DNA from: an uncultured virus (IMG/VR IMGVR_UViG_3300009128_001768)
Taxonomy: Duplodnaviria; Heunggongvirae; Uroviricota; Caudoviricetes
Direction: 5' to 3' (one strand)
Virus record (IMG/VR): IMGVR_UViG_3300009128_001768
Location: 62,001 to 123,373 of that record
Length of the DNA stretch: 61,373 bases
Part shown: piece after piece, positions 1 through 26,253 of the stretch
How the letters are laid out: each line of letters opens with the position of its first letter
How positions within the stretch are numbered: the stretch's first letter is position 1
Notes under the pieces: model-generated
Seen by the model: the letters and a program-made list of their open reading frames with translations, nothing else
What the model was told of the DNA's origin: nothing
Databases searched by the model: none
Position numbers and translations under genes: made by a program

Positions 1-1
1 A

Positions 2-1648: not shown

Positions 1649-4012
1649 CTAGCTTACTACCTTGTATACCATTACATCGAGAACATCATCAATTTCAATA
1701 TCAAACGCAAATTTTAATGATGATGCACCAGTCACATAGTAATCTCGTTCCACAGGATCTGCTGTTACCTGCGCTGCTGTGCCAGAATGCAATAACTGTC
1801 CATTCAATAAAACGTCGATCAAACCAATGTCATAAGATACCGTCGCAAAATTTGTCGATGACACTGGAACATTCACCCCGGCAGAATACGATTGTGCTAG
1901 AAAATAGCTCTGTCTCTGTCTTTCGGATACCCCAGTATTACTAACTTGAACATAACCAGATGATCCGGTGGTTATAGAGATACCAGTACCAGACCGAAGA
2001 TACGACGTACCGTCAACGAGCCGCGTCAATGAACCCGACAATGCGGGCACGCTTAAAGTATTCGTTACCTTATTAAACGTGAATGTGCTGTCGCCACCAA
2101 AAGTGTTACTATCGTTAAATTGAATCTGCGTATTGCTTCCGCCGGGAGAACCGCTGCCTCCTGTCGAAGAAATAGTTATTGAACCATCAGAGGCTGATGT
2201 TATAGTAACGTTCGGCCCTTCCCGAAGATATGATGTACCATCGCTAAGTTGTTGTAAAGACGCGGATAGGCCGGCCAACGCTACAACAGACCCAGAAGCA
2301 AGTACATCCCCACCGAAAACAGATGAACCCCCTGTTGATGTCCCAATACTCCCTATACTTCCAGATACAAAGAAACTAGTATCACCAAAATTAGCGGGGT
2401 TGGGATCTGAGGTGCCGCCACCAGATAAAATCAGTATCTGTGTATTGGCACCTGATTCTGTCATTTTTATAAGATCGACACCACCAGCTTGAATGTTTAT
2501 ATCATCTGGCTGAAACCGAATAAAAGTGTTGGCATCATTTTTGTGGTAGATGTACTCTCCCACGTCCATATTTCCGCCAACAGAAAGCTTATAAGAAGGA
2601 GTATCAGACCCAATGCCAACTTTACCATCTGATGTAACGGTAAACATGCTACCAACACCCGCCTGACCCCTGTTGACAGATAACGTTCCGGATACTACAA
2701 CATCACCACCGAAAACAGAAGTACCTCTCCTTGAAGTATTTCGAGAATCGATAGATCCAGACACGAAGAAATTAGTGTCAGTGAACGTTCTTGGGTCAGG
2801 GTCTGCTGCTGACGAGCCGTGACCAGAAGCATCAGAAAGACTTCCGGAAAATAGAAGTACTTGGTCTGTTTCACCGTCTACCTGCAAGGCGCTACTTTTA
2901 TTTTGGGTTTCTACCCTAAAGTTTTTATCGACTCCGCTCTGGTTTACCACCACAGTTCCGTTAAGATTTACGTCACCCTGGACATCTAAAAGAGACCCGT
3001 TCCACGTAAAGTCAGCATCAGATGTTAGCGTATCTGAATCTGACCAGGTCGCAATTCTGTTTGCTGCTCCAGAACCATCAATACCTCCAGTCGATGAAAT
3101 TGTAATGGCTCCTGAAGAACCTGTCACTATTGTCGTATTACTTCCAGCAATCAAGTAGCTAGTACCATCCTGCAGATTCGTTAATGAACCGGACAATGCG
3201 GGAGCAGAAACTGTTCCTGAAAATGTTGAACCAGTTAAAGTTGCGACAATTGAATCTCTAACTGCGATCGTATAGGCAGCACCGGCACCAGAATCAGTAG
3301 TCTTTATTCCTGTTCCTGCTGTAAACACACGCTCATTCGATAGCGATGCGGTGGCGGCCAAAACAAGATATTGTGCAGCAGGATCACCATCTCCTGCACC
3401 GCCAGCTGACGCGACAACAGTGTCCAGCATATCACCAATATACAGATAGCCCTCAATAAAGTCAGGATTATCCGCCTGGTCTCCAGTTCCAGATGGGTCC
3501 TGCTGGAAGAACACTCCGTTAAAATAATCTAGATACCAATCTCGAGCGTCCAGTAGCGGAATTAGTGTACCTGATCCCTTGGACGAATTACCACCGTAAT
3601 ACGGCTTTGCCTCGTATGATGACGCAAAAGATGGAGGTATAAGTTGTAACGATCCAGACGTTATATTAATGACTTGATCATTCTGGAACGGGTACGTACC
3701 CGCCTTTGAATTCGATGAATTGGATTCATAATCAGATGGAAGCTTTAATTCAAATCCGTGTCGACCATCCGATGTATCGCTACCGGCAATAAACGTTGCG
3801 GGAAATCTGAGGTATTCCACCTGTCCCGTGATTGTATATAGCGCGGTGTTGGATGGGCTGGTAGTGACCGATTCTCCGAATATATTTTCAGAAGTTGTAG
3901 TTATACCTGACGGCAGTCCCTCGTTAGAAAGACCCTTATCGTTTGATGTCTGCGCTTTACCCGCTAATTTCTTAAGCGAAATCAAGCGCTCAGTTTTTGC
4001 ATCATACGCCAT
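1649..4012 (-). CDS. Tail fibre / virion structural protein with LSGSLxxLxDGTSYL repeats
   Basis: 787 aa, G/S/T-rich. Has three LS[GA]SL..DGTSYL repeats, two FFVSGS...SVFGGDV repeats, and the fibre motifs GKVGIGSDTPSYKL and PGGSNTQIQFND. Confidence 0.75.
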   Translation of the reverse strand: MAYDAKTERLISLKKLAGKAQTSNDKGLSNEGLPSGITTTSENIFGESVTTSPSNTALYTITGQVEYLRFPATFIAGSDTSDGRHGFELKLPSDYESNSSNSKAGTYPFQNDQVINITSGSLQLIPPSFASSYEAKPYYGGNSSKGSGTLIPLLDARDWYLDYFNGVFFQQDPSGTGDQADNPDFIEGYLYIGDMLDTVVASAGGAGDGDPAAQYLVLAATASLSNERVFTAGTGIKTTDSGAGAAYTIAVRDSIVATLTGSTFSGTVSAPALSGSLTNLQDGTSYLIAGSNTTIVTGSSGAITISSTGGIDGSGAANRIATWSDSDTLTSDADFTWNGSLLDVQGDVNLNGTVVVNQSGVDKNFRVETQNKSSALQVDGETDQVLLFSGSLSDASGHGSSAADPDPRTFTDTNFFVSGSIDSRNTSRRGTSVFGGDVVVSGTLSVNRGQAGVGSMFTVTSDGKVGIGSDTPSYKLSVGGNMDVGEYIYHKNDANTFIRFQPDDINIQAGGVDLIKMTESGANTQILILSGGGTSDPNPANFGDTSFFVSGSIGSIGTSTGGSSVFGGDVLASGSVVALAGLSASLQQLSDGTSYLREGPNVTITSASDGSITISSTGGSGSPGGSNTQIQFNDSNTFGGDSTFTFNKVTNTLSVPALSGSLTRLVDGTSYLRSGTGISITTGSSGYVQVSNTGVSERQRQSYFLAQSYSAGVNVPVSSTNFATVSYDIGLIDVLLNGQLLHSGTAAQVTADPVERDYYVTGASSLKFAFDIEIDDVLDVMVYKVVS

Positions 4013-4015
4013 AGG

Positions 4016-7000
4016 TTAGCTCCACGAAACGCTCATACTAGAAATGTACCCAGTTGATGAAGCGTCTGCCTCTATTTTCACAACTATATATTCATTACTG
4101 CCTACTGACTGTGTTCCGAAGGTCGCAGTGTTAGTCGCATTGAGCGATGAGTCTAAGCTTCCATCTAAGCAGCCGTCGCCGTCGGAGGTTTGTCCCGTCG
4201 CGAATGAGATTGCCAAATCCATCCACCCAGTTTCAAAGGCAGCAGTTGTGGTCGGAAGCTTAATCAACACGTGAAGGTTCGACGTTGTCAATGTAGTCGC
4301 TTGAGAAGCGATAGTTCCTGATCCGTTGATAGTAAGATCGAAACCTGTCTTTGAGCCCCCTGATGTGTTCTGAAAATATCTATAAAACGTTCTTGTGCCT
4401 GACGTGATACCGCTATAATTTACATTGCTACTTGGACCGTTTGTTATTGACCCGCCGTCAGAAGTGTTTCTAAAATCTCCAGAATCTCCTCCTTGGGGCG
4501 GCGCGTAAAGTCGGCTATTATAAAAAAGCAAGCCATCAACGCCGGCGAGGCTTGTTGTAGAATCCCAAGCACTCCCTCCAGCGGTAACGTTAGCTTGAGT
4601 ATTATAGCTACCTGATATTAATCTATAACTTTCACCCCTGAACGTCTCAGACGTGGCGGTGGATGTATCAGATAGATCGTATAACAAAATTCCGCTTATT
4701 GACTGTGAGCCGGCGCTGGAAAGATTCGATTTTAGCGGTGCGGGTACATTAGTACTTACAGAAATCGACCCATCTAAAATAGGATCGCCTGTAATCGTCG
4801 CTGATCCAGTAAGATGCAGAATTTTCGTTTCATCTTCGCCGCCTGCATGATTGATAGATGGAAACGCTTGAGACGAGACTGAGCAATTTGTGCCGTTAAA
4901 AGATATTGTAGATGTAGAATATACATTACGATACGCATTCAAGACGCGGATCCTATATTCAGCGGTTCCGCCAGTGTTATATTTCACTCCCGAAAGATTT
5001 TTAGTTCCTGTCATGGAAAGCGAATCCATGGCAGAATTATCGGAAGACAATGCATTGGAATCGGGATCGTTCACCCACTCCACATAGTTGCATGTTATAT
5101 CTGCGCCTGCTATTGTGTGCACCACCCTCGCGTAGTTCCACCCGCTCTGCTGATCAGCGGCGGTGATTGTGTATGTACCTTGCCGGTGTTGGAAAGTTTC
5201 GAAATTGCTGCTATCGCTAAAATGGCCTGGCGTGGTTGCAGAAAGGTTAAACCCAGACCCGTTTCCGTTCAAAGAATTCCCAGACCCGAATGAACTTAAA
5301 TCTACAGAGTGTATTGCAGTGGAATTATCATTTACAAAAAGTTTCAAAGTTCCCTGATTACCGTTGCCGAATGAATAAGCGGCGTAATTTACACCATCTG
5401 CTGACACGTCGGCGTTCAGCGTTCCGTTGATCACTGTCGAGCCGCCGAAACAAGCGCGCCGTAAGTCATTACTTGCGGCAGTTGAATTAAACGTTCCATT
5501 AATATCGATATCAGAAAGATTGTCAGTGGGCGTCAACGTGGAAGGTCGTGCATTTGTATAACCGGAAATTGACTGCGATGATCCGAAGGAAAGGACAGCC
5601 GAAGTACCAGAGTCTGAACAGTTCATATCGTCTAGACCTGGGGCGGCGGAGGGTGCAAGCCCCTTCAAGACCTCGTTAAACCTATCCACCGCTGTCCCAA
5701 CTGGTGTTACAGTACTGAAATCGGTGAATAACCCATCAGAATATGAACCGTCTTCAGCATCTCCTATAGACCCAGTGACTGCGACGACGCCACCGCCCAG
5801 ATCGCTTATAACTCCAAGCTTAGATAAGTTTAGAGTGCTGATGCTTGAAACGCTAGAAGAACCGGAAACAACTGATATTTCTCCACCGGACGCAGCTACT
5901 GTCACAGCTCCAGAGGAGCCAGTAGTAATGGTCACGTTACTTCCTGCGATCAGGTAAGATGTCCCATCTTGTAGTTTGGTGAGTGAACCAGAAAGAGCTG
6001 GAGCAGTAACCGTGCCTGTGAAGGTCGATCCAGTGATCGTTGCAATAATCGAATCGTCTATAGAGAGCTCTGTTGAATCAATCACCAACCCAGAGTTGCT
6101 CTTAAGATCGACACTGAATTCGGTGCCTGAAAGATCTAGACCATCGCCAGCAGTGTATGTTGTGTCTGTGTCAGTAGATGATATTGAAATATACCCAGCT
6201 GAGGCAGAGGTTATGATAACATTAGCATTACCTGGTCGTAGATAGGAAGTCCCGTCTTGTAGTCTTGTAAGCGAACCCGAAAGAGCTGGGGCGGTCACGG
6301 TACCAGTAAAAGTAGACCCAGTAATCGTCGCTAAAACAGAATCATCAATTGAAAGCTCGGCAGAGTCAATTACTAAGCCAGATCCGCTCTTAAGATCGAC
6401 ACTAAATGCGGTACCCGAAAGATCCAGGCCGGAACCAGCTGTGTATGTTGTATCAGTAGAAGACACTGTGACATATCCCGCTGAGGAACTTGCTATTGCA
6501 ATATTCGAGCCCTCGCGGAGGTATGACGTGCCATCAGACAGCGCTTGTAAGGACCCGGAAAGTCCTGCTTGCGCAACAACATCACCGGAAAAAATCGAGC
6601 CAGTTAATGCAGCAAACTCGCTATCTTTCACTCGTAGAGTGTACGCATTACCTGCACCGTCGTCGCTAGATGCAAGGCCTGTCCCCATTGTAATAACTCT
6701 CTCTTGCGCGAGAGAACTAGTCGCGGCCAAAACAAGATATTGTGCATTACCATCCGCGACGCCACCACCACCAGCGATTGCGCTAATTGTAATCTCACCA
6801 GAAGACCCCGTCGTTATCGTGACGTTATCACCCTGCCGGAGATATGACGTACCATCAGGAAGCCGCGTCAACGACCCAGACAAACCAGCATTAAAGACAA
6901 CAGGTCCGCTAAATTGAGACCCAGTTAATGTCGCGACGACAGAATTATCAATACCAACAGTAATACCAGAAGTCCCACCATCATAAGTGAACGTTGATAT

Positions 7001-8854
7001 CCCTGTTCCTTGAGCCAAAGAATTTGGAACATTCGCCACGCTTATACCAGAAGAACCCATATCGATTGTGCTGCCGTCAAGCTTGACCCTTAATTTATCA
7101 GAGCTAAATTCTAGGCCTGCGGTTGATGCAAGATCAACCGCCAGGGTTACATCGCCGGAAGCACCGCCACCTGTCAATCCCTGGCCAGCGGTAACACCAG
7201 TAATTTCTGTGCCATCTGTTGAAACGACTATCTGTCCGTTCGATGACGTAACGATGCTTACACCTGTACCGCAGGCAAGATATGGTACACCAGAAGACAC
7301 TTCTTGTAGAGAGCCAGTTAAGCCCGCTGTTGTTGATATACCAAACGTATTTTTCCCTGTCCACGTATTGTCGACACCCTTTCGAGGAACCACTGCAGTG
7401 TCGATTGCAACTGTCTGGGTAGAAGAGCCGTCAAACGAAAATGTATCAATGCCTGTTCCTTGAGAAATTGCATACGGCAAATTTGCAACAGATATCCCGT
7501 TATTTCCGATCGAAAGGGTACTGCCATCTAAATCAATAGAAAATAAAGTTGGTAGCTCAGCACCTTGAAAGTTCAGGTTGATCCCGCCGTTCGAAGCCGC
7601 GGCCATCAGCACGGTTCTGTCAACCAGGTCAACCAACGTACCCACAGTAGATTTTGTTATTGTAGTCCCGCCGTCAGACACAAATAGAGATGAAGACCTT
7701 GTACCAGCAGAAGACAACGATGTTGCGTCTAATCCAACTGTTGCTGCACCTGTGCCATTATACGTAAAAGTGCCAATACCTGACCCGGCGGTAAGATCTC
7801 CTCCGGCACCAAGCGAAGCAGCGATTGTTATCTGGCCAGAAGTCGGGGTATCATAAGAAATTGTAACGTTGCTACCGCCCACAAGATATGGAACGCCAGA
7901 AGACACCTCATCATGCTTCCCCAACAGTGTACCAAATGTATTTGTTCCAGACCATGTATTGCTACTTGCCAAAAGAGGAACCGTAGATGTATCGATACCG
8001 ACTGCCACGCTAGCTGTGCCGCCGTCATAACTAAATGATGATATTCCCGTTCCATGTGTTAAAGCATTCGGTACTGACGCAACGCTTAGTCCAGACGAAT
8101 TTACACTTAACGTTGGGCCATCCAGATCGGCTTTTAATTTATTTGAACTAAATTCTAAACCAGAATTTGTCGCAAGATCTACTGCGATTGTTGCCGCGGC
8201 AGTATTATTATATGAGCTTGCGCCAGAAGCAGAATCATAAATTCCGTCTCCAAAAGTAATGGCATTCGCCAAAGTGCCACCGGCGCCTGCCGCCATTAAG
8301 TTGGAGACGGAAACCTTTTTTACATTGCGTGCAGTGGGGTCATCAAGATCGTAGATGAACAGCAAGTCTCCGGAGGCGGGGGTCACAGCTAATTCTGAGT
8401 CTACATCATTTGGATTCAGACCCAGACCACTTGAAGAGAATGTAATTCCTCCGCGGTCATATAAGTCTACCTTTACTGATGCGTTTCCGCTTCCGTCATA
8501 AGTAAAGTCTTGAATTCCGTCCGCCTCTACTCCCGACAGCGTCCCGACCAGCGCGCCTGTACCCGCGGCAATCGTAACAGCGCCGTCTGAACCAGTTGTA
8601 ATCGTTACATTGTTCCCTTCGCGTAGATACGTAGTACCATCAGCAAGGCGTGTTAAAGAACCAGACAATGATGGAGCGTACACCGTTGTGGCCTCAACAT
8701 TACCATGGACAGCGAGAATCCGATGAAATTCCTTATCATCGAACCCGATCTGGAAGTGCTGGGGAGAAACTATCTTTAAGATAGAATCGTCAGTTTTCGA
8801 TCTTATGACCAAAAAATCAGATTTATTTAAAGATGTCCTTGATTCACGTGCCAT
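4016..8854 (-). CDS. Long tail fibre-like protein with multiple internal repeats
   Basis: 1612 aa. Has 5 clear and 2 degenerate LSGSL..DGT[ST]YL repeats, TAGxGL and DLDGSTL motifs, and a non-repetitive C-terminal domain of about 570 aa. Confidence 0.8.
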   Translation of the reverse strand: MARESRTSLNKSDFLVIRSKTDDSILKIVSPQHFQIGFDDKEFHRILAVHGNVEATTVYAPSLSGSLTRLADGTTYLREGNNVTITTGSDGAVTIAAGTGALVGTLSGVEADGIQDFTYDGSGNASVKVDLYDRGGITFSSSGLGLNPNDVDSELAVTPASGDLLFIYDLDDPTARNVKKVSVSNLMAAGAGGTLANAITFGDGIYDSASGASSYNNTAAATIAVDLATNSGLEFSSNKLKADLDGPTLSVNSSGLSVASVPNALTHGTGISSFSYDGGTASVAVGIDTSTVPLLASSNTWSGTNTFGTLLGKHDEVSSGVPYLVGGSNVTISYDTPTSGQITIAASLGAGGDLTAGSGIGTFTYNGTGAATVGLDATSLSSAGTRSSSLFVSDGGTTITKSTVGTLVDLVDRTVLMAAASNGGINLNFQGAELPTLFSIDLDGSTLSIGNNGISVANLPYAISQGTGIDTFSFDGSSTQTVAIDTAVVPRKGVDNTWTGKNTFGISTTAGLTGSLQEVSSGVPYLACGTGVSIVTSSNGQIVVSTDGTEITGVTAGQGLTGGGASGDVTLAVDLASTAGLEFSSDKLRVKLDGSTIDMGSSGISVANVPNSLAQGTGISTFTYDGGTSGITVGIDNSVVATLTGSQFSGPVVFNAGLSGSLTRLPDGTSYLRQGDNVTITTGSSGEITISAIAGGGGVADGNAQYLVLAATSSLAQERVITMGTGLASSDDGAGNAYTLRVKDSEFAALTGSIFSGDVVAQAGLSGSLQALSDGTSYLREGSNIAIASSSAGYVTVSSTDTTYTAGSGLDLSGTAFSVDLKSGSGLVIDSAELSIDDSVLATITGSTFTGTVTAPALSGSLTRLQDGTSYLRPGNANVIITSASAGYISISSTDTDTTYTAGDGLDLSGTEFSVDLKSNSGLVIDSTELSIDDSIIATITGSTFTGTVTAPALSGSLTKLQDGTSYLIAGSNVTITTGSSGAVTVAASGGEISVVSGSSSVSSISTLNLSKLGVISDLGGGVVAVTGSIGDAEDGSYSDGLFTDFSTVTPVGTAVDRFNEVLKGLAPSAAPGLDDMNCSDSGTSAVLSFGSSQSISGYTNARPSTLTPTDNLSDIDINGTFNSTAASNDLRRACFGGSTVINGTLNADVSADGVNYAAYSFGNGNQGTLKLFVNDNSTAIHSVDLSSFGSGNSLNGNGSGFNLSATTPGHFSDSSNFETFQHRQGTYTITAADQQSGWNYARVVHTIAGADITCNYVEWVNDPDSNALSSDNSAMDSLSMTGTKNLSGVKYNTGGTAEYRIRVLNAYRNVYSTSTISFNGTNCSVSSQAFPSINHAGGEDETKILHLTGSATITGDPILDGSISVSTNVPAPLKSNLSSAGSQSISGILLYDLSDTSTATSETFRGESYRLISGSYNTQANVTAGGSAWDSTTSLAGVDGLLFYNSRLYAPPQGGDSGDFRNTSDGGSITNGPSSNVNYSGITSGTRTFYRYFQNTSGGSKTGFDLTINGSGTIASQATTLTTSNLHVLIKLPTTTAAFETGWMDLAISFATGQTSDGDGCLDGSLDSSLNATNTATFGTQSVGSNEYIVVKIEADASSTGYISSMSVSWS
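5900..6460. repeat. Tandem intragenic duplication, period 288 nt (96 aa)
   Basis: gctcttaagatcgacact occurs at 6098-6115 and 6386-6403, and gtgtatgttg at 6153 and 6441. The protein repeat DTTYTAGxGLDLSGTxFSVDLKS...APALSGSLTxLQDGTSYL occurs twice. Confidence 0.85.
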
Positions 8855-8877
8855 TCAACATTCCCGTTACGTAACAC

Positions 8878-8884
8878 TAAATAT
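8878..8884 (-). promoter_or_regulatory. Putative late promoter motif ATATTTA
   Basis: Lies in the 56-nt gap upstream of the 1612-aa fibre gene and matches ATAnTTA. Confidence 0.45.
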
Positions 8885-8910
8885 TACGAAAAGCAACGTG
8901 GTAGCCGGTA

Positions 8911-11900
8911 TTATCTAAGCGTCGTTCGAGAAACCATATTACCGATATCGATAGACACGAATGGGTTTGTTGTAGGAGTCCGTTGGGCCTCACCCTCAAA
9001 ATACGGGATGGAAGAAGTCATAAACGTGCTTATGTTCTGGCATGATGTTTTGCTAGCATCATCTATAGGATTACCGTCAGCATCAACAAAAATACAAGAA
9101 ACAGCGGCGTCACCTGTCCCTCGAGGCGTCTCATCGTCTCCTGTGTTGAAGAACTTCGTATAACGTCGTTGCTCTAACATGTCCCTCAGCTGGCCGTATC
9201 TATCCGGTCGAAAAACTGCGTTTGTGTAAGACCAAACATAATTCTTAAGGCCATACTTGACACCTTCTGGATGGTCAAGACGCATGGAGAAGGCCTGCTG
9301 GCTGGAGGGGATGGCGTATGTATTTAAGCTTTTGCGGTTCCAGGTAAATCCATTTGTGGTACCTCCGGTGGAAGAAAGATAGCCCGAGCCATCATAGAAA
9401 TATGCGCCACCAGTTGTTGCGAATCCAAATAGAGCGGCAGCCATTGCCTTGTCTGCTGTGTCTTCTGATTGTCGACACTCCAGAGTCGGGTACGTGAGGA
9501 GCTTCCCCCTCGACGCGTAAGCCGCTCGCACCAGCGGGCTTTGGAGATAAGCAGTAAGACTTCGGGGCGGACCGAGACGTGCCCATCCCCACCTAAAAGG
9601 CCTGGGGATGAGCTGGGCCCAGCCGTAGTTCAGCCCTGGTTGCGGAATGGTGCGGTAGCTCGATTGGTCGGCGGGGTCTTTCAATACTCTATCCACGTCA
9701 TCATATCTACTCTCAAAAGGAAATGCGCCGACCCACCCATTATTTACAGCGGCAAGCCCTTCGCTGCTGCTAGGATCGGAATACCGAGTCGAGGCCTGGA
9801 GTCTATAGAACAGATTCTGACCAGATGTGTCGGGAGTCTTCCCGTCAATTTTCCAGATCTGTGATACAGTGGGCAGAACGGAGTCCCAATACACTTCACT
9901 TTGGTCTGGCAAGACCACAAATCGTTGCAATGACTTGTTAAAAGACAGGTTTCCATCCCAGCCAGTGGCTGCCACCTTCCGGACGTAGATATTACGATCA
10001 CCCGAAAAGGGGTTGTCCTTCTTATCGTCCTGTGGTATGTATCGAGCGCTACCTGTTATATATTGATCCAGGTAAGAACCGCTGTATGCTGTCTTGTCAT
10101 CGACCAAGAACTGGTCCATGACCGGGTTATCGAAGTGAAGGGCCTCGTGTACGGCGTTTGTGACCAGGGGCTGGTTCAACTCCGCGGGATGAGGTTTATT
10201 ATCACGTAACAGAGTACCGTACAAGACAAGTCGCGCTTTACCGGCTTTCAAGACAGTTTGACGGATCTGCTCAGACAGGTTCCTTCGATTGACCCCAGGT
10301 CGGAACTCATTCGGTACATAATTTGGGGTGCTCTGGTCGTTCTTTGCGCTGAAATCGTTGCCCTCGACACCCTGATACCCTTTCTCGTCAGCTCTAGAAA
10401 ATGGCCCAGAAATACTGTTCAACGGCTTAGGAGCACCCTCATTCATTCCACCGATCGCCGGCTGGAAGCCAAGCACCAGTTTATCTCCAGGCTCTAGTAC
10501 ATAAGGAGAATTATACGTATATGTACGAGCTAGGGTACCTGTCGTTTGGGTCATCGCACCGATACAAAACGGCCAGTTCGTTACCGCATTTGCAGCGACG
10601 AAATAACCAGAATTGTTTGTAGAAGCCGACTTCAGTGCTTCGAAAGTGGTCGACCATTCTTCAGAGTCTGCGCCTGGGGCATACGGCAGTGATTGGTTCA
10701 AGTGATACTGTGAAACGGCCACCCAGTCGCTATACGCTTGATTACCCTGCTGGGTTAGTGTAGATCTTAGGTTAGAAAAATCAATCGGTTGAAAGCTGGA
10801 CGTCTGGACAAAATGAGCCGAGCCAATCGGACCGGTCCACCCATAGTCCCCCCAAAAAGATCGCGGATCCCATGACTCGAGAAAGTCGCTATATGCACCC
10901 GTCACTACCCCCTTCACGGAGGGCACATACGATAATTTTTGTGATGTGGGTACATCCCCCGGGACGGACTTGACGATTGATCTTCCAGACGATAGGCCGA
11001 CACTCCTGAACACATGACTTACGCTGGTGAATTCGTCAATTTGATGGACATAACTACTTTCTCTCGGGTAGAAGACGCCTTCTTCGCTATCGTTTATATT
11101 CTGGGGTACGACAGGAGTAACATAAGAACCGACAGTGGTGCCCGGCGTCCAGCGAGCATCATATTGGTAAAAGAGAGTGTTGAAAGTTCCTCCAGCGACG
11201 GCGCCGGCGGCGTTGGAATTCTTGATGTCAGTTAACATCGTAAATGTTCCTGAGCTCAAGATATTCTGGCTAGCAGTATGATAATATTGGACATTGGTTG
11301 GCCACGGCTCCCGACTCGCCGTCGCGACGAGATACGCGGAGGAAGGCTTGAGCTTATACCATGGTGTCGAGACCAGGTCGCCGGTGGCTGGATCCCAAAC
11401 TCCGCGCGGGACACCACCCCGCCACCCTAATACGCCAGGTGTGGGATCAGCAGCCCACAGCTTAACGAATCGCTCACCGTGATCCAATCTGATCGAAGTC
11501 TCACGGCGAAGACCAGCTTCGAGAAGAGTCTGTCCCGTCAAGGATCCAGTAATCCCAAAACCGCCCCACGTAAAAAAATCATTCGCGCCGTGGCCGATGG
11601 TGGCATTCTCTTCATTCAATCCTACTGCCGCTGCTTCAGAAACGAATAACAGCGGATTCGAAACAAAAGAACCACCTCCCGCTTCGTACGATCCAGAGTG
11701 CGGCTGACCTACAAAAATTGTGGGAAGACCTTGGAGGTTAGCAGAAGGCGCGCCCCCCTTGCCCGTGGCGAGATTCGCTGTATCTATACCAAGCGTATTG
11801 TAGCGCGCCTGGAATGGATAATAAGCATTCGAGAAATTGAGACCGACGTACTCCGACTTGATCGCTGGGTTCTGCATGTCTTTTGTGGGATGTCGCGAAC

Positions 11901-16107: not shown

Positions 16108-18773
16108 TACAAGTCTCCGTACGTAATTGAACCAGCATTTTTGTCAAAGTAAAATCCATGATTTGCCCGCTCTTCTGTCGGGTCGGCGGTAGCTTGAGAT
16201 CCTGTGTTCATCAAACGCATCGCCGCTATTAAATTATCTTCAGCTAAAGAGTCCTCGTACGTGCCGAAACGTGCGTTGTATATCGCACGTACCTCGCTCG
16301 GCTTTAAGTCATGATGACTCCACACAGCAAGATCCGATATGATACCCGAGAATGTCTTCACACGAGTGCCGGATGTACTCACAATAAGCCCGTAGGAGTT
16401 GATGGCGTCTGGAGTTCCATTGCCGGGCGTGTCTTCTGTAATAGGAACAATTCTACCATTGATATACATCGTCGGGTCAAACAAGAACGGGTAGTCGGAA
16501 GTTAAGTACGTAATCGCGAGGTGGACCCATTCTTTCTCGGGGACTGGATTTCTCGATTCCCACTTACCAACCTGGCTTGTGTAAATTCTCTTAAATGTTA
16601 GATAGCCAGTGGTATCGTCAATATAGAGCCTAACATTACCGTTTCCGATTGTAACAATAGACGACTCTTCGTTCACTCCCGTGTTTATCACTCGTGAGGT
16701 AGGAGCATCCCACCAGACCCAAACCGATATAGAACAATATCCACCGCCACTTCCCCAAGATGTGGCCTCCCAGTCAGCGGCGTTAGAGGAAATTACACGA
16801 CAAGGATCGTCCCCCCCCCACGCAAATCCAGCGCTTCCTGTCTGGATCAATGCTGATGGAGAAGAGGTGGATGACGAAGGACCATCAGGGTCTTGCCACT
16901 CAAAGAAGACCGGGTGGTCATACGAGTTTTGCATGGAACCATCTCTACCATTTCCGCTACTGTCCACCACGTCGCCGGAGGGATCGGTAGCGTATGAGTT
17001 GTCTTCATTGAACCTAAACCAAAGAGCAAGCCTATTGGAAGCCGGAAAACGATATCTCATGGCGTGGAAGTCCGAGTTTGCGAGGTCCATAGAGAATATT
17101 GCATCTGTATCGACAAGATCGTAAGGTGCTGACATCCCACTGCTCATTAATTGATTGTTCAAAAATAATACACCGTTTGTGGCATCAAATGCTGTCGTGT
17201 CAAAAAAAGCAGTGTCAGATTCCTGAGTGATATTTGAGTACGCTCCTACGGGTATCGTCCCCCAATTTAGCGGAGCATCTAAAAAATGGGCAACTTTTGT
17301 ATCTGAGGTCTTCCACGTATCAACGATCTGCTTACTTCCGAAGTATGTCTCAGCAGCGCCCCCCGTCAAGCCACCTCTCACGGCGTGGCCCTCATAACGA
17401 TGGTCGGACATGCCCAGTATTTCTGGTCTAACATCTAGCGGCTCAATGATACCATCAAATTCGTGATCGAGCAATGAACCAAGATTAAAAAGATGCACAG
17501 GCCACATCGTCTCTTCCGATGCTTGCAAATAGGCAACTGGATCGTAGCGTTGCGTCTCGACATAGGGCATGCCCTGCTGGACGGTCGGTGCCTGTCCGAA
17601 ATCTAATTTCTCCATATCAAAATCAATACGTTGATTTATTTTCACATCATTTTCGCCGCGCATATCATTTGGGTCTGGATTCATTTGTAGCGTATCGTCA
17701 AAATACGTGTCAGGGAGCTTGTCTCCATTTCGCCATAACGACATTGGAGCGCCCTGTCTGATCCTTGGAAGGAGGCTTGGGTAGTAGATGCCATCTTTCT
17801 GTGCGTCAAGGCCCTGCAGGGACATCTCGTACTGCGAACCGGTAGGAGATAGCCTTTCGCCATAGCCGATGAGGTCATAATTTCGATACGTATAATAAAA
17901 GGAGCCACCGGTGGCGTTATATAGCGCTGTCACATCAGCTTCAGATAATACAACTCCCCAGATCGCAACATCGGCCATATTTCCGTTGTAATAATTTACA
18001 GTTTGTCTCGCACCCACATAAAGAGACTCGGCGGAATTCTCCATCGCAACATAAGATGAAGCAAGAGTAGAATCATCAGACAGGGATTGCGCGACGCCAT
18101 CAATATAAATTGACATGCAGCCCGTCGCATCGCCGCCTGCAGCGATTGTCTCTGCCCCGGTCCCGTCATATGTCGCGACTATATGGTGCCAGCTACCTCC
18201 TGTTAATGAAGCAGCTGGAGTTTGTGCTAGCAGGTTTGCATTTACGCTATCATCACCAACCTTAAATCGTATTCTAGAATTTCCGTCGCCATTGGCATCA
18301 TACAAGACCAGCTGGTACTCCAAATTAACACCACTCTGCTCACCTTTGTGGATTATAGTGTCATATGTCAGAGATCCGGTTCCAGTACGGTAAACCCAAG
18401 CGCTTACAGAAAATGGTGTGTCGGTAGCGCCGTCACCGAACGAAAGCGCAGTTGCATCAGCGGGTACCGCAACTGTGACGACGTCAGAAGATCCGTCAAA
18501 TAAACATGTCCTCATTTGGATATTCGATGACGGTGTTGATATCGAAAAGCTCGGTCGTTCGGTGAGAGCTGCAAACGAGCCGGGGAGTCCCATTCCGCTT
18601 GCATCAGTAATAGAACCAGCAGCGGAAACGTCTTCATTTAACCGCCACCATCCAGCTAATGAACTATGCGCAGTATATTGTGCAACTGGAGGTGGACCAC
18701 CAACGTACATCGATGCAGTAAGATTATAATATGCAGTATTATTGACTGGCGTCGTTATGACATATTTTGGCAT
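16107..18773 (-). CDS. LamG-domain virion protein (two LamG-like domains)
   Basis: 888 aa with FSVSAWV...WHHIVATYDG...IYIDG...YNGNMADVAIW and ISVWVW...WVHLAITY...MYING...FSGIISDLAVW. Confidence 0.75.
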   Translation of the reverse strand: MPKYVITTPVNNTAYYNLTASMYVGGPPPVAQYTAHSSLAGWWRLNEDVSAAGSITDASGMGLPGSFAALTERPSFSISTPSSNIQMRTCLFDGSSDVVTVAVPADATALSFGDGATDTPFSVSAWVYRTGTGSLTYDTIIHKGEQSGVNLEYQLVLYDANGDGNSRIRFKVGDDSVNANLLAQTPAASLTGGSWHHIVATYDGTGAETIAAGGDATGCMSIYIDGVAQSLSDDSTLASSYVAMENSAESLYVGARQTVNYYNGNMADVAIWGVVLSEADVTALYNATGGSFYYTYRNYDLIGYGERLSPTGSQYEMSLQGLDAQKDGIYYPSLLPRIRQGAPMSLWRNGDKLPDTYFDDTLQMNPDPNDMRGENDVKINQRIDFDMEKLDFGQAPTVQQGMPYVETQRYDPVAYLQASEETMWPVHLFNLGSLLDHEFDGIIEPLDVRPEILGMSDHRYEGHAVRGGLTGGAAETYFGSKQIVDTWKTSDTKVAHFLDAPLNWGTIPVGAYSNITQESDTAFFDTTAFDATNGVLFLNNQLMSSGMSAPYDLVDTDAIFSMDLANSDFHAMRYRFPASNRLALWFRFNEDNSYATDPSGDVVDSSGNGRDGSMQNSYDHPVFFEWQDPDGPSSSTSSPSALIQTGSAGFAWGGDDPCRVISSNAADWEATSWGSGGGYCSISVWVWWDAPTSRVINTGVNEESSIVTIGNGNVRLYIDDTTGYLTFKRIYTSQVGKWESRNPVPEKEWVHLAITYLTSDYPFLFDPTMYINGRIVPITEDTPGNGTPDAINSYGLIVSTSGTRVKTFSGIISDLAVWSHHDLKPSEVRAIYNARFGTYEDSLAEDNLIAAMRLMNTGSQATADPTEERANHGFYFDKNAGSITYGDL

Positions 18774-21700
18774 CAGTACTTCCTCATATCACCAACAAGT
18801 TGTCGGAGTAGTATTATCCCCTTAAGATTTCTACGAGTACTCTCGCCGAGATATACATCACCAGAACCATACGCGACCTTCGGTCGCTCGAGGCCATGGC
18901 CCTCAATTATAAAATTGAACCCCAGATAATTTGTCTTTCGAGGAATAAGGCTCTCAATAATCACATCAAATGAATCATCAAGCCATCTAAAGAAATCAAA
19001 CAGCTTTTTGTAATTAATGGACTCTGTTAAGCGATTAAAATATATTTTTCTTAATCTAGCAAGATCTGGATACTCTTCTGCAAACATCAGCTCTGGGGCG
19101 CCTAACGCGAGATCAAGTGCGTCGAGAGTCGCATAGATGTTCATTATGTCTTCGTCAAGGGCTTGCATTATAGAAAATTCAATCATAAACCGGGTGTCAT
19201 CAACTGGTTCAGCGGATTTAACGATCTCATAAACTGGGGCTGGATTACCGCCCAGCTCAAAAAGATTTTTTCCTTGAGTGAACCCGGCCACTCGAACCTT
19301 ATTCTGTTCTGGCATCTCATCGTAATTTGGGGATAAAAAGCTAAAATCAAAACGCTCGGGCTGTATAATACGTTTTTTGGCTTCAAATCCAAATGCCGTT
19401 GCGCCGCTAGCATTGCCACCGGCGGAAACAGGATTGAAGTTTTGCGAAAAATCAACCAGCGGTAAAGTACCCAATTCATTGCTTTCTGTGCTAGGCTGAT
19501 CTGTCGAAACATCAATACGAAGCTTCTCAAATGAACCCGTTACATCTGACGAAAAGCCAAAGTTAACAAGCGGGTCCTTCACGCCAAGCGACTTGAAATT
19601 TAAAATATGTTCTTTCGATTCATCTTCATCGAGCGCTTTTGACCAGAACCTGCAATGCCCCCAAAGGCCGTCAAAACGAGTTGTTCTTGCAGTGTTGCTT
19701 ATAGCACTATCGTTTAATTGGTAAAAGCCGGTGCCAGTGTGGATATTTTGAGTACCAACCACTATAAACGAGCCGCTAGCATTAAGGATCGGATCAGACA
19801 CTGCATTTTTTCGTTGAAATAAATTTTCACCGGGAAGATCAGAATAATCGTTTTCAGCAAAGTGCGAAGAAGTTACATAATACTCAGAAACGTCTCCATA
19901 CTCTTGGCGGCCAGCTCTTATAAAATAGCTCGAAGACACATACGATCCAGCATGCTCTGATCGAATTCGACCACAAGAAATATACCAAGTTTTGCCATCA
20001 AAAATATCGGCGCCGGTTAACGGAAGAGCAAGCAAAGGTGCTGATGAATTGAAACCTGGTCGACAATACAATGTGAGCTGCTCGCCTGTTTTCTCGGCGT
20101 ATACAGCACGAGATATTGGCGGAGTCGCAACGAGGTTCAGTAATACCCTGTGAGAATTATCAGCAGCGCTGGGATTACCCTCGTCCTCTGACGCAGTTAC
20201 GTGGAGGCGAAATAAGCTCTGGTTCCAGGTGATGTCTCGCGCCATTGGAAACTTCACTCGAGTTTCGATCGTCCAGCTGCCTGACGTTAATAAGCCGTCT
20301 CGGGCGGCGTCTGAATATGTACCTCCGTCGGGATGTGCAACAAAATCGCCTGATATGTTCGGGTATCCCCTCTCAACACGTGATGCAGACAGAAACACGC
20401 TTTGCACGGCTGGCTTCACGCTATAAAAACCATGCGCATCTTCAACACCCGTCATATTCGCCATACTCCCAGAAAAATCTAGTAACGTAGACACTTCTGT
20501 TGCTTTTTCTCTTGCAAGACCCAAGCGTTGTGTCGAAGTGCCACCATATTCGACAAATCTGAATATGCGATTGGGGTCTATACCAGAGGCCCTAAAGACA
20601 GCCTTCATGGCATGTTTTGTACCTTTCGAAATTATAATTTCGCGGATGTTCGTTAAAAGACGTCGCCAAATCTCGTTTTGAACAAACTGCAGACTTTTTG
20701 TTATCTTCCCATCAACAATTTCTTCGCCAGCAAAAAATTGATTCATTTTTGCGTTTCTAAACATATTTGGCAGCTCGATACCATAATGATGCGCCAGAAC
20801 TGGTAAAAATTGATCAGCAATTGATTCTTCTGTATCATATTCTGCGAACACTAAATTACTAGCATGATCAAGCATCGATTTGATCAAGTCAAACTCTCTT
20901 GCCCACACAAAAAGAAGCGAAGAAATAATCTGGGGTTGTCCCAACTGCGCGCCGCCAGGTGCGCTGTAGTCGACGGAAGTAGTTGATGATAAGCCGTCCA
21001 TCAACGAACCATCAGGGTCAGACGACACATCAAGCGTCGCCGCGGCCTCTGCCAAATAATGTTCTGGAATCAACTTTGTAATTAAGTTAGGATTGTTTGT
21101 ATCGTATGATGAGGCAGTCAATAATAATTGTTCGTTGAGCGTTAATACGGTGGGGTACGATGGAAAAAGCACAGGATGCTTTACAGACGCCTCAAATAGC
21201 ATTGGCGGAATGTTATCAGTATCAACAGTCCGCATCGAAGCGGCAAAATTGCTTATCCGTGAATGTAAGCTCATCCCAGAGTGGTCTAAAACAACATCGT
21301 TGTTCGTATACGATCCTGTTGGTTCATTAAAACGTAATGACAGCCTAAGACCGTCTTTCGCGAACATCGTTCGCTGGTTGTAATACTCTATGTCTTCCGT
21401 AGTACGTACATCAGAAAACACTCTGAATTCGTCAATGGATCCGCTAAATGTTTCAGCTGGAATAAATTCTGACCCTCCCAGTTGTAATGTGCTACCAGTC
21501 GCTATAAAAAAAGAGGCTCCGCGGGTAGACAACGATCCAAACTTAAAGCGTCGAGACTTAGCTGTTATCGCAGAACTGCTCATTATAGCTGCAAATTTCT
21601 TGCCTGGCCTCTTGTCATAAACGAAATTTAGAAAATGAAATTGGTCTTTTGGTAAAGAATAAGATGCAGAAATATGATCAGACCCGCTAATGACAGCAAA

Positions 21701-22348
21701 GTTTATATTAGCAGCCGATGCATCGCCTGAATCTAGAAAGGCAGCATAGCCCACCCCTCCATCACTCATATGACTAAAAATTATCTGATTATCATTCGCT
21801 ATGGGAGGCAAAAAAAGACGACACTCTACCGAAAAAGAGCGATCTAAAGGATCTAATATTGTTTTTGCAGAGCGGATTCTAGAAAGTGCTGGAAAAAGAA
21901 CACCTGCTCTATCTTTTATTTCGATATATTGCTTTAAAGAACTTGAGAAGGTGAGATACCCAGTATAGCTTGGGAAAGAATCTAAGACATGTTTCTCAAA
22001 TCCTGTCAGGTCATCCAAGAAGTCTTCATACTCCTCACGCGTTCCGTCGAACGGAAATTGATTTATTATCTTCTCAAATGCGATATTAACGTTTGATTCA
22101 GCAGAAGCAAAAAATGTATGGTTTTCAAATTTTGAAAAATCTAATGGAAGCTGCTGAGATGACTTAAGGGGTGATCCCGGAGGGTCATATCGAAACGAAC
22201 CTGTTGTAGAGGACGGTGCAGATCCAGAAAGCGAGGCGGCGCTCTGGTGCTTTAACACCCCCGAAGAGTCTGTATACCTTCGGATCACCTGCGGGGTGAA
22301 AAGTCGCTGGTTTTCAAAAACCCGCCTTATCTTGGGTCCCTTAGCCAT
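18773..22348 (-). CDS. Baseplate/tail-associated protein with LamG-like domains
   Basis: 1191 aa with FSGSIDEFRVF and WTIETRVKF LamG-like motifs. The central helical segment FLPVLAHHYGIEL...IWRRLL...KGTKHAMKAV is reminiscent of P2 gpI-type baseplate proteins. Confidence 0.6.
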   Translation of the reverse strand: MAKGPKIRRVFENQRLFTPQVIRRYTDSSGVLKHQSAASLSGSAPSSTTGSFRYDPPGSPLKSSQQLPLDFSKFENHTFFASAESNVNIAFEKIINQFPFDGTREEYEDFLDDLTGFEKHVLDSFPSYTGYLTFSSSLKQYIEIKDRAGVLFPALSRIRSAKTILDPLDRSFSVECRLFLPPIANDNQIIFSHMSDGGVGYAAFLDSGDASAANINFAVISGSDHISASYSLPKDQFHFLNFVYDKRPGKKFAAIMSSSAITAKSRRFKFGSLSTRGASFFIATGSTLQLGGSEFIPAETFSGSIDEFRVFSDVRTTEDIEYYNQRTMFAKDGLRLSLRFNEPTGSYTNNDVVLDHSGMSLHSRISNFAASMRTVDTDNIPPMLFEASVKHPVLFPSYPTVLTLNEQLLLTASSYDTNNPNLITKLIPEHYLAEAAATLDVSSDPDGSLMDGLSSTTSVDYSAPGGAQLGQPQIISSLLFVWAREFDLIKSMLDHASNLVFAEYDTEESIADQFLPVLAHHYGIELPNMFRNAKMNQFFAGEEIVDGKITKSLQFVQNEIWRRLLTNIREIIISKGTKHAMKAVFRASGIDPNRIFRFVEYGGTSTQRLGLAREKATEVSTLLDFSGSMANMTGVEDAHGFYSVKPAVQSVFLSASRVERGYPNISGDFVAHPDGGTYSDAARDGLLTSGSWTIETRVKFPMARDITWNQSLFRLHVTASEDEGNPSAADNSHRVLLNLVATPPISRAVYAEKTGEQLTLYCRPGFNSSAPLLALPLTGADIFDGKTWYISCGRIRSEHAGSYVSSSYFIRAGRQEYGDVSEYYVTSSHFAENDYSDLPGENLFQRKNAVSDPILNASGSFIVVGTQNIHTGTGFYQLNDSAISNTARTTRFDGLWGHCRFWSKALDEDESKEHILNFKSLGVKDPLVNFGFSSDVTGSFEKLRIDVSTDQPSTESNELGTLPLVDFSQNFNPVSAGGNASGATAFGFEAKKRIIQPERFDFSFLSPNYDEMPEQNKVRVAGFTQGKNLFELGGNPAPVYEIVKSAEPVDDTRFMIEFSIMQALDEDIMNIYATLDALDLALGAPELMFAEEYPDLARLRKIYFNRLTESINYKKLFDFFRWLDDSFDVIIESLIPRKTNYLGFNFIIEGHGLERPKVAYGSGDVYLGESTRRNLKGIILLRQLVGDMRKY

Positions 22349-23901
22349 TAAGAAACAACCTTAAAAGAAATATCCCTAAGCTCCACAATTTCCGAAACCC
22401 CGCTATCCTTCACAAGCAAGTCTATAGTATAGCTTCTATTTAATGGAAGACCAGCAGTTAATAAATCAATATACATTCCAGCAGCATCAGTACAAAGCCT
22501 TGTCGAATCCGTTACGTCATCGAATGGTATAATAACCGTATTCGTTTCAATATCTCTTATCCTATAATATACTCTATCAACCACAGCTGTCTTTAATTTT
22601 CGTGGTAGCTTGTAAGCTTTGTCTTTTAATTGCGCGTCGATATCTTCTATAAAGAGACGAATTTTCGCGGTCGAGTATTGCTTATACTCTGGCTGCGCAT
22701 TCAGCGCAGAGAACACCAAGCTTCTATTAACAAAATTATCAGTTCCGACTGCGGACTTCTTCACTGTAATAGAACTTGTCAGATATCCAATAGTTCTATC
22801 GATAGAAGACCAAATCTCTTTCAAGACAAGCTCATCCTGACTTCTCAAGGTCTTAAAAAATGTAGAATCAAACCTGTTAAGGGAAAATGAGGCAGAGTAC
22901 ACTCCAGTCATTCCCGCACCAGTTGCGGACCCGGTATGTTGAGATCCTGTTACAAAAATTGATTTAGCAGTTGGTCCAGACCCACTGATCAACGTCAGTA
23001 GTATGCAATTCTGACCTGTCAGTGCCGTATCAGATGCACCAGATCTAATGTTAGTTGCAGTTCCCCCAACAATATTTTTTAGGAACAAGCTCGCAGTAGA
23101 ATTAAATATGAAGCTTTGATGACTGTCTTTTATGGTATTATTCCATGTTACAAGAATTCGGGGTGCCAATATTTTGTTTCTAACGTGGCGAGAGGCGAAC
23201 CTTTTAGCGAACCTTGTTTTTGAATCTGTTTCGTATGACCCGCTAAAAGAAATTCTAAAGCCGTGGTTTGATAAATCACCAGCCAATGATGAAGAAACAA
23301 CCTTTGTTACGTCAAGTGATATTTTCCCAGGCCCATCACTGAAATATTGAGACGCTCCGAAGTCAGTTATGGAAGATCCCAGGACGCCAGTTGTGATATA
23401 ATCAATTCCCGAATCCCCCATAAACCCAGCTTTACCAGAGCCCGACAGACTCCATAATACCGGTGAGCCGGAAGAAGAATAGGATGCCGTCAAAAAATTT
23501 GCGGCGTCGACATCTAGAAAGCGGTTAACATCACGACCAGAGCCTTCAGAAAAAGCTTTAGCCAGTGGATAAGCAACAACCCAAAAATTTCTAGGAACTG
23601 GTGATCCTGTTTCTACCTCAGTTAATTCAAGCGTTGCTCTGAAGCTCGAGTTCGTAAAATCTAGAGAAGAACTCGCGAGTGTGGATAGCGTGCTGTAATC
23701 GAATTTTACTAATAAGCGTGACAGCTCACTAACAGATGACGTAACCCTAGTAGACCCAGAAGTATACGTAGACTCATCGTAGAGCTTAAACAAATCCAGT
23801 GTACCAGCCCTTCCAACATTCGTGTCGGTGGCTCTAAAACTATTATCAATAATTTTATTTGTGATGTATGTATCAGCGCTAGCCGTTAAGATATAAAACA
23901 T
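22348..23901 (-). CDS. Putative baseplate-associated structural protein (DNRLRE/CBM96-like N-terminal region)
   Basis: 517 aa with the pattern ADTYIT...RLLVKFD...LDVTKVV...NHGFRI...APRILVTW. Lies immediately downstream of the gp6-like gene. Confidence 0.5.
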   Translation of the reverse strand: MFYILTASADTYITNKIIDNSFRATDTNVGRAGTLDLFKLYDESTYTSGSTRVTSSVSELSRLLVKFDYSTLSTLASSSLDFTNSSFRATLELTEVETGSPVPRNFWVVAYPLAKAFSEGSGRDVNRFLDVDAANFLTASYSSSGSPVLWSLSGSGKAGFMGDSGIDYITTGVLGSSITDFGASQYFSDGPGKISLDVTKVVSSSLAGDLSNHGFRISFSGSYETDSKTRFAKRFASRHVRNKILAPRILVTWNNTIKDSHQSFIFNSTASLFLKNIVGGTATNIRSGASDTALTGQNCILLTLISGSGPTAKSIFVTGSQHTGSATGAGMTGVYSASFSLNRFDSTFFKTLRSQDELVLKEIWSSIDRTIGYLTSSITVKKSAVGTDNFVNRSLVFSALNAQPEYKQYSTAKIRLFIEDIDAQLKDKAYKLPRKLKTAVVDRVYYRIRDIETNTVIIPFDDVTDSTRLCTDAAGMYIDLLTAGLPLNRSYTIDLLVKDSGVSEIVELRDISFKVVS

Positions 23902-25759: not shown

Positions 25760-26253
25760 CTCGCGCTATAGATTATTACTTCAAGAATCCTGTTCTGGAC
25801 GTTTAACTTCGGAACACTATAAGTGATTCTAACACCGACTTTTGCGACGTTCTTGTTGTCAAAATACTCAGTAATGGGTTCGAATGTGGATGGAATCACA
25901 TAGGGCATGTATTTACCGACGGCGCGACTTATCCTATTTATCGCCTCAGTTTGCCCATCTTCGCTTTGAAGCTCAAACGACAACTCCATTAAGTTCGCAC
26001 CGAAATCAGGAAACCCCAACCGTTCACCGTGATTTGTGAGGATTAAGTTCTTAAAATTATCGCTAACTTGATCAGCCATAGAATAATTCATTTTAATAAA
26101 CTCAGTTCCCTCCGACGACAGCGCCACGGGGGTTTTAATCCCAAAAGCTATATTCCTTTTTTGCTCTTTCTGTCGAAGCTTCCGGGCCTCGGCTTGTTCA
26201 CCAACAGACCTAAAAGAGTAAACTTGTCTATCTCCTAATTTCGTTAACGCCAT
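25756..26253 (-). CDS. Baseplate protein, gpW/gp25 family
   Basis: 165 aa with the family signature NLILTNHGERLGFPDFGANL. Adjacent to the gp6-like gene. Confidence 0.9.
   Translation of the reverse strand: MALTKLGDRQVYSFRSVGEQAEARKLRQKEQKRNIAFGIKTPVALSSEGTEFIKMNYSMADQVSDNFKNLILTNHGERLGFPDFGANLMELSFELQSEDGQTEAINRISRAVGKYMPYVIPSTFEPITEYFDNKNVAKVGVRITYSVPKLNVQNRILEVIIYSAS

Follow-up and report, generated by a model that had tools for sequence, protein, structure and literature searches.

A tripeptide in the virion proteins of an uncultured T4-like phage is probably the site at which sugars are added to the phage's own particle, judging from how the motif is distributed over proteins and genomes. 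The window analysed here is a 61,373-nucleotide stretch, positions 62,001 to 123,373 of IMG/VR record IMGVR_UViG_3300009128_001768, and forms the right half of a 123-kb virus contig. The motif, [ST]-[GA]-S, is ordered, with a strict final serine; it is selected at the amino acid level, is confined to outer virion proteins and is tied to the gene for GT4-B, one of two tandem family 4 glycosyltransferases (GTs) encoded in the window. We favour, at a probability of about 0.7, the reading that [ST]-[GA]-S is a serine O-glycosylation sequon read by a heterodimer of GT4-A and GT4-B, and that a neighbouring variable island of sugar genes extends the glycan.

Motif enrichment in the window

A sequence-only reading of the window had counted the broader motif [ST][GAS]S by hand and proposed that it is selectively enriched in some structural proteins. 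Its tallies were right: 17 copies in a protein of 517 amino acids (aa), 18 in one of 1191 aa, 24 in one of 2398 aa, 14 and 27 in fibre-like proteins of 787 and 1612 aa, none in a 616-aa wedge protein and one in a 425-aa piece. The genes concerned are as follows.

1..1276, minus strand: fibre-like gene, N-terminal part of a 918-aa gene leaving the window; motif not enriched
1649..4012, minus strand: 787-aa fibre-like protein rich in Ser, Thr and Gly; 14 motifs, enriched for [ST][GA]S only
4016..8854, minus strand: 1612-aa fibre-like protein rich in Ser, Thr and Gly; 27 motifs, chance level, part in repeat units
8911..16107, minus strand: 2398-aa virion protein of no known family; 24 motifs
16107..18773, minus strand: 888-aa protein with two LamG domains; 7 motifs, not significant alone, family enriched 2.0-fold
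18773..22348, minus strand: 1191-aa baseplate-associated protein with a LamG domain; 18 motifs
22348..23901, minus strand: 517-aa baseplate-associated protein with carbohydrate-binding module (CBM)-like and Ig-like beta domains; 17 motifs, strongest carrier
23909..25759, minus strand: 616-aa gp6-like baseplate wedge subunit; inner protein, motif-poor
25756..26253, minus strand: 165-aa gp25-like wedge subunit; family motif-poor

Expected counts were taken from 1000 composition-preserving shuffles per protein, with 500 shuffles in 30-residue blocks as a local control. Selective enrichment held for the 517-aa (17 vs 4.6 expected), 1191-aa (18 vs 5.0) and 2398-aa (24 vs 11.6) proteins, whose counts were reached by none of the global and none of the local shuffles. 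It did not hold for the 888-aa protein (7 vs 4.0; 116 of 1000 shuffles reach this count), nor, for the motif as written, for the two fibre-like proteins in which it had been claimed (787 aa: 14 vs 9.1, 69 of 1000; 1612 aa: 27 vs 23.9, 259 of 1000). Repeated units contain part of the fibre copies. For the narrower [ST][GA]S the 787-aa fibre is enriched (13 vs 5.4, p < 0.01). A composition artefact is therefore rejected for the three leading proteins and accepted for the 1612-aa fibre. The 425-aa piece does hold a single copy; it had been taken for a whole fibre, and the full 918-aa gene has 4 motifs vs 4.8 expected. Absence from the 616-aa protein, offered as a contrast, is uninformative alone because only 1.1 motifs are expected by shuffling. 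Elsewhere on the contig, enrichment extends to an 806-aa protein (18 vs 4.0), the tail sheath (11 vs 3.7), the neck adaptor (5 vs 1.0) and a 418-aa protein (7 vs 2.3).

Scanned without prior choice of motif, the tripeptides of the four non-fibre proteins are led by SGS (20 vs 4.8) and TGS (14 vs 3.6), with TAS lower (9 vs 3.0) and SGT (2 vs 3.6) and TGT (5 vs 2.8) at chance. By middle residue, most of the signal comes from Gly, less from Ala and little from Ser. A look-elsewhere test for the best class motif in eight structural proteins returned an [ST]-G-S core (log10 p of -10.5; best of 40 shuffles, -7.4). A hydrophobic residue (Ala included) precedes the motif at 64% of 66 sites against a background of 39%, as the sequence-only reading had remarked. 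N-linked sequons were rejected as an explanation, since N-x-S (105 vs 99) and N-x-T (85 vs 82) are at expectation in the window's genome; [ST][GA]N is not enriched either (38 vs 46). Separately, D-x-S is raised in the four non-fibre proteins (window 8911-23901; 64 vs 35.7) and [DS][FG]S appeared in the class-motif search. Genome-wide, D-x-S is only 1.17-fold enriched; its excess may be a looser form of the [ST]-[GA]-S site.

Distribution among virion proteins

Family-level counts use [ST][GA]S in non-redundant homologues. The motif is enriched 4.9-fold in the 517 family, whose 58 non-redundant homologues hold 679 motifs vs 200 expected, 4.4-fold in the 1191 family (451 vs 102), 2.4-fold in the 2398 family (117 vs 49) and 2.0-fold in the 888 family. 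It is depleted in the gp6-like wedge family (38 vs 69 in 59 homologues, 0.55-fold), which gives the zero in the 616-aa protein its meaning, and in the gp25 family (0.31-fold). Six families summed (517, 1191, 418, sheath, capsid and neck) are enriched 3.3-4.9-fold in all seven genomes with a typical GT4-B (G011 is without three of the six). In the same seven genomes, the wedge, gp25, tube, portal and hub proteins together have 5 motifs vs about 14 expected, and tube orthologues have none in six of six GT4-B-positive genomes. We take the six families to be outer on the basis of gene position, LamG/CBM domains and general T4 architecture.

Some observations lie beside this pattern. The gp25-like protein (25756-26253) ends in S-A-S at its extreme C-terminus despite its motif-poor family. 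A 916-918-aa protein near the capsid gene in two loci (L339:17217-19973 and L344:11561-14311) has many S-N-T, S-M-T and S-I-T repeats but almost no [ST][GA]S. Tail sheath genes occur in tandem (1029 and 1047 aa) at L071:876-7136 (G000 C1:20376-26636), two sheaths are also found in G004 and LR756508, and G004 has a tandem pair of major-capsid-like genes (L209:16269-20000).

Selection on the protein

Of 20 conserved columns in the 517 and 1191 families, 18 use both TCN and AGY codons for the final Ser. Position 1 of the same columns swaps Ser and Thr, position 2 swaps Gly and Ala, and codons are mixed at all three positions, so selection acts on the protein and a DNA-level repeat or motif is rejected. 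At polymorphic sites, Ser/Thr at -2 is coupled to the final Ser (0.35 in 38 columns vs 0.13 in 2517 matched triplet classes, p = 6e-7; relatedness is controlled in part only). In an AlphaFold model of the 517-aa protein, with a predicted local distance difference test (pLDDT) score of 86.5, the sites lie in strands, turns, loops and one helix, mostly after a hydrophobic residue. The suspicion that the motifs might simply be structural turns thus does not fit this model, and the mixed secondary structure points to no single structural role. Where the motif lies in a strand, both of its hydroxyls would point away from the core.

Turnover differs between families. The capsid family shows more of it: 51 sequences hold 168 motifs vs 66 expected, spread over 49 columns with at most 17 sequences per column, in the variable middle part and nearly all outside the conserved C-terminal core. 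Free site turnover is not seen in the 517 and 1191 families, where no excess is left once recurrent columns are masked. The proposal that the motif arose convergently stands across unrelated proteins and falls within the 517 and 1191 families, where columns are recurrent and largely inherited.

Co-occurrence with GT4-B

Across a panel of genomes, scoring was limited to proteins that are 200 aa or longer and contain 22% or more Ser, Thr and Gly, and repeated contexts were counted once. [ST][GA]S is enriched 1.91-3.16-fold in nine of ten genomes or fragments with GT4-B and 0.60-1.36-fold in all ten without, which include T4, two cyanophages and three Bacteroidota phages. Equal enrichment in phages lacking GT4-B was looked for, and these ranges speak against it. 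Among 160 further loci chosen by wedge or capsid genes, the expected count is 5 or more in 71, of which 67 reach at least 1.9-fold. Of 23 genomes tested, four are near-complete, and in all four GT4-A lies next to GT4-B; no hits came from 16, each of them less than 60% complete.

Judged by wedge, capsid and GT4-A, the nearest relatives in culture are Flavobacterium phage immuto (Immutovirus) and Microcystis phage Mel-JY01, with Rhodothermus phage RM378 more distant. All three have the tandem pair and the motif (as T-x-S in RM378), at just 30-47% identity.

Two natural experiments bear on the link. In a five-marker tree rooted on T4, LR756508 nests with GT4-B-positive immuto, Mel-JY01 and G019 (ultrafast bootstrap 100), and a tree constrained to group the GT4-B-positive phages without it is rejected (approximately unbiased test, 1000 replicates). 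A scan of its whole 484-kb genome found only two of 35 core families missing, GroEL and GT4-B; GroEL is also missing in Mel-JY01 and RM378. On gene content, GT4-B is the only core gene that tracks the motif. The six outer orthologues of LR756508 have 9 motifs in 3994 aa, compared with 29-44 in 3600-4200 aa in the others, and its two sheaths have 1 and 0, compared with 4-9 in 14 other sheaths of the lineage. The second case is RM378, with a tandem GT4-A and a far-diverged GT4-B (39 bits vs 281-610 elsewhere). Its motif is shifted: T-x-S occurs 205 times vs 80 expected and S-x-T 80 vs 80, the seven tripeptides that rank highest are all T-x-S, and this type of asymmetry is found in no GT4-B-negative genome of the panel. 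LR756511, which has neither gene, looked like a second loss in a capsid-only tree rooted on RM378. The five-marker tree rejects this by placing it outside the pair-bearing clade, and it is counted as an outgroup. One gain, one loss and one shift form a coherent, if small, set of events on the phylogeny.

Co-occurrence, the secondary loss, the shift and the outer-versus-inner distribution together support the earlier suggestion that the neighbouring GT4 pair is responsible. The same suggestion for a 640-aa GT in the window is rejected, as this protein does not track the motif: immuto, Mel-JY01 and G019 are all motif-rich, yet the first two lack a homologue and G019 gives only a marginal partial hit.

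The GT4-A and GT4-B enzymes

The enzymes and the sugar genes next to them lie in the second half of the window.

30463..31647, minus strand: GT4-B, 394 aa counted from the first TTG codon; core gene whose presence goes with the motif, candidate for reading the sequon
31625..32878, minus strand: GT4-A, 417-aa product of a conserved core gene; its C-terminal strand (407-414) is the predicted docking site for GT4-B
33856..60966, minus strand: variable glycan island, candidate for donor supply and chain extension
59044..60966, minus strand: 640-aa GT2-domain protein; does not track the motif

Both GT4 proteins score above the PF00534 cut-off and have the two-Rossmann GT-B fold. The first Glu of the E-x7-E motif is invariant in 55 of 55 sequences (E281 in GT4-A, E278 in GT4-B), the second is the consensus residue, and the donor-binding Arg-Lys is invariant (R201-K202 and R189-K190). 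By these residues, both subunits keep catalytic signatures.

The GT4-B model (pLDDT 95.3) matches GT4 structures. Its top fold match is chlorovirus B736L (Z 31.0, root-mean-square deviation 3.0, 346 aligned residues; runner-up Z 28.4), which is also the top PDB sequence match of GT4-A. GtfA, SdgB, O-GlcNAc transferases and phage DNA glucosyltransferases follow at Z 19-20.5, with T4 alpha-glucosyltransferase (1y6f) ranked 38th (Z 19.4), the HY126 GT (9iqz) 41st (Z 19.1) and GtfA 42nd (Z 19.0). A modelled fold shared by GT4-B and B736L shows no function.

GT4-A and GT4-B are predicted to form a heterodimer, in which the C-terminal strand of GT4-A pairs with a strand of GT4-B. The predicted complex scores 0.87 (best of three controls, 0.00), at least 95% of contacts are shared between runs and the partner pLDDT is 90. 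The mark used for this score, which 116 of 157 solved complexes attain but only 2 of 215 mismatched pairs, is roughly applicable here (own alignments). The predicted interface sets residues 98-107 and 407-414 of GT4-A against 219-226 and 246-254 of GT4-B. Two independent checks agree with the prediction. A natural 807-aa fusion of a full GT4-A and a full GT4-B occurs in two records, and the predicted docking strand is lost in LR756508, which lacks GT4-B. There, GT4-A ends 22 residues past the Y373 column, compared with at least 36 in 86 of 86 other GT4-A proteins, removing the docking strand; the 98-107 helix is also degenerate. Length past Y373 was used because a regular-expression test for the strand failed to discriminate.

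Among the 120 long homologues of GT4-B listed, there is only one GT4-A/GT4-B fusion. GT4-B is also fused ahead of GT2 and GT9 domains, occurs with inteins (inserted at the Glu motif in P0271-P0274) and is found as distant domains in bacterial GTs bearing tetratricopeptide repeats (TPRs). Many such bacterial multidomain GTs (P0297-P0389), often TPR-bearing, have one to three GT4-B-like domains. TPR-bearing GTs tend to use proteins as acceptors, and the acceptors of these enzymes might show related motifs. Other variants are a 765-aa GT4-A with a large insertion (L145) and, in Mel-JY01, a GT4-A split into two open reading frames (190 and 302 aa) and a 1227-aa protein with a second GT4-B-like domain (L197:3441-4932, L193:4747-8430).

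Proposed mechanism

Sugar transfer, the acceptor residue, its timing and its purpose are what we infer from these patterns. The GT4-A/GT4-B heterodimer would bind the tripeptide while the chain is extended, which probably means before folding or in the course of it, and add the first sugar or sugars to the final Ser, with the -2 Ser/Thr serving as a recognition group or a second site. GT4-B is the subunit most likely to read the sequon. Island enzymes would make nucleotide sugars and then extend or cap the chain. The outcome would be a phage-specific surface glycan on the baseplate periphery, sheath, neck and often the capsid. As a guess, such a coat might shield against proteases, sticking or grazing, or tune adsorption.

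Alternative explanations

Several results weigh against glycosylation as the cause. The 517, 1191 and capsid families also show a 1.8-2.1-fold excess of [ST][GA]T. For [ST][GA]S, the excess in the 517 and 1191 families is confined to 19 and 26 recurrent columns, and masking these leaves 1.09 and 1.06, although the masking selects on outcome and biases the ratio downward; inheritance thus explains much of the excess. A subclade of six loci (L107, L116, L119, L120, L134 and L138) keeps the GT4 pair, yet its 517 homologue is acidic, shortened (363-409 aa) and has 0-3 [ST][GA]S. One 42-kb fragment with both genes, G014, is not enriched (1.42-fold, 26 vs 18). The GT4-B-negative controls are mostly distant phages, and SGS is mildly raised in the cyanophages and phi4:1 as well (34 vs 16.6, 52 vs 32 and 15 vs 7.4). 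LR756508 retains a residual excess (9 vs 4.4, p = 0.03). The motif is avoided neither in non-virion proteins (0.4-1.6-fold, same as controls) nor in the sheath C-terminal core (8 vs 3.6). The phylogeny holds just three independent events.

The main rival draws on much of this list. The motif would be an inherited structural or surface feature, with small residues in exposed strands or turns, that stays unmodified, while the GT4 pair acts elsewhere and shared ancestry produces the correlation. The recurrent homologous columns, the few events, the raised SGS baseline in some unrelated phages and the subclade that keeps the pair with a nearly motif-free 517 homologue all suit it, as do the invariance of S8 and S140 of the 517 family in 101 sequences and their general persistence in the motif-poor subclade. 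One site falls on the F-x-G-x-I-D-E strand of LamG, which we presume to be structural. We nevertheless consider this account unlikely. It does not readily explain why the sites occupy mixed secondary structures in many unrelated folds, or the strict residue order, for which S-x-T is an internal control. The scatter of capsid motifs over columns, the loss of the motif from LR756508 orthologues of unchanged folds and the shift to T-x-S in RM378, where GT4-B diverged, also argue against it.

The remaining two explanations appear improbable. A host enzyme, or another group such as phosphate or lipid, might modify the motif, the phage GTs either extending a host-primed site or being unrelated. Bacteroidota hosts glycosylate proteins and the relatives include Bacteroidota phages, but three Bacteroidota phages without GT4-B (phi4:1, PTm1 and crAss001) are not enriched (0.95-1.35), the motif is present in phages recorded on Flavobacterium, Microcystis and Rhodothermus, and GT4-B alone among core genes tracks it. 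Marginally less probable still is that the pair adds sugars to phage DNA or to envelope polymers of the host, with the motif arising from something else. The best-known roles of phage GTs are in DNA glucosylation and serotype conversion (PMC12619734), and the GT4 pair adjoins a PD-(D/E)XK nuclease gene. There is, however, no reason for such enzymes to co-vary with a virion-protein motif, and immuto already has a 7-deazaguanine DNA-modification gene set. The fold scores of the T4 and HY126 enzymes, far below that of B736L, argue weakly in the same direction.

Comparison with known systems

Mycobacteriophage GTs have been proposed to modify the phages' own virion proteins (Freeman et al. 2023, via PMC12619734 and PMC12363180), where capsid and tail tube subunits carry the glycans C-terminally. 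Phage-encoded GTs are common to both cases (here the GT4 pair plus GT2, GT7-like and GT11). Unlike those sites, the motif here is an internal tripeptide, with up to 24 copies per protein, found on the sheath, the neck and the periphery of the baseplate and absent from the tube. A separate C-terminal modification besides the internal motif is possible. Searched as sole query against 50,697 phage records, GT4-A gave nine hits (E < 1e-5), none in a mycobacteriophage.

GtfA/GtfB, which acts on serine-rich repeat adhesins (PMC6973325), is a cytoplasmic two-protein GT complex that primes O-glycosylation of Ser/Thr in S-x-S contexts, after which a variable set of GTs extends the chain. The predicted complex and variable extending set here are alike. 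The differences are that GtfB is a non-catalytic chaperone bound to GtfA through DUF1975, whereas here both subunits have catalytic signatures, the predicted contact is a C-terminal strand and a Pfam scan of the window proteins gave no DUF1975 hit. The acceptor there is a long alternating-Ser repeat exported by SecA2/Y2, compared with isolated tripeptides in folded domains here, and no Sec families were found in a Pfam scan of 50 window proteins. The proposed system is similar in working to both precedents and fails their defining features: terminal sites in the mycobacteriophages, the chaperone and repeat acceptors in GtfA/GtfB.

Chloroviruses have autonomous glycan machinery with atypical sequons, N-linked on a few capsid Asn sites, and B736L (of the GT B736L/A546L) has no assigned activity (PMC9614988). 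Virus-encoded machinery and the B736L matches are the likeness; Asn linkage there, with N-x-S/T at expectation here, is the difference. Family B DNA polymerase (PolB) is the marker gene of moraphages, a clade described with four core GT orthogroups (PMC12619734). Here, neither G001 (75% complete, locus 99-100% identical to the window's proteins) nor G004 (complete) has PolB, and both have PolA. DNA polymerases differ within the lineage, with PolA in some members (G001, G004 and G012 compared) and PolB in G019.

No description of the motif was found in full-text literature searches, subscription papers and supplements being outside the scope. For immuto, Mel-JY01 and RM378, the GT pairs are annotated and no literature report on virion glycans or the motif was found.

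Genomic context

The source is a large T4-like myophage; contigs of related phages are as long as 242-293 kb. Every window gene is on the minus strand. Fibre-like and baseplate genes occupy 1-26253, followed by a few conserved small genes, the tandem GT4 pair, the nuclease gene and the 27-kb sugar-gene island. One further small gene lies among the fibres.

1407-1625: 72-aa DUF5659 gene between two fibre-like genes

A fold search with the 517-aa model gave domain-level matches only (CBM, Ig-like). The island encodes sugar enzymes (GDP-mannose dehydratase, epimerases, nucleotidyltransferases, a PfkB kinase, HAD phosphatases, transketolase halves and UDP-glucose dehydrogenase) and transferases (sulfotransferases, GT2, GT7-like and GT11). 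Its content beside the GT4 pair varies between related phages. In the motif-poor subclade, a homologue of the 640-aa GT lies beside the nuclease gene in four of the six loci.

Implications

We know of no tailed phages regarded as glycoprotein viruses, except for terminal glycans on some mycobacteriophages. A broader claim, which we put only a little above even odds, is that the whole lineage from RM378 to immuto, with hundreds of uncultured genomes, consists of glycoprotein viruses. Two active GT4s would read [ST]-[GA]-S, with GT4-B setting the sequon, as the T-x-S shift in RM378 suggests, and a swappable island would build serotype-like glycans, each virion bearing them at hundreds to thousands of positions. 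The reading is directly testable because the carriers immuto, Mel-JY01 and RM378 are cultured, one with a naturally shifted motif. If true, this would be the first time that a glycosylation sequon is defined in a tailed phage, and protein O-glycosyltransferases would gain a new two-subunit member. Glyco-engineering could make use of a cytoplasmic enzyme pair with a portable tag of three residues. The sequon, if shared across this widespread aquatic lineage, would also explain the large variable sugar islands in its genomes.

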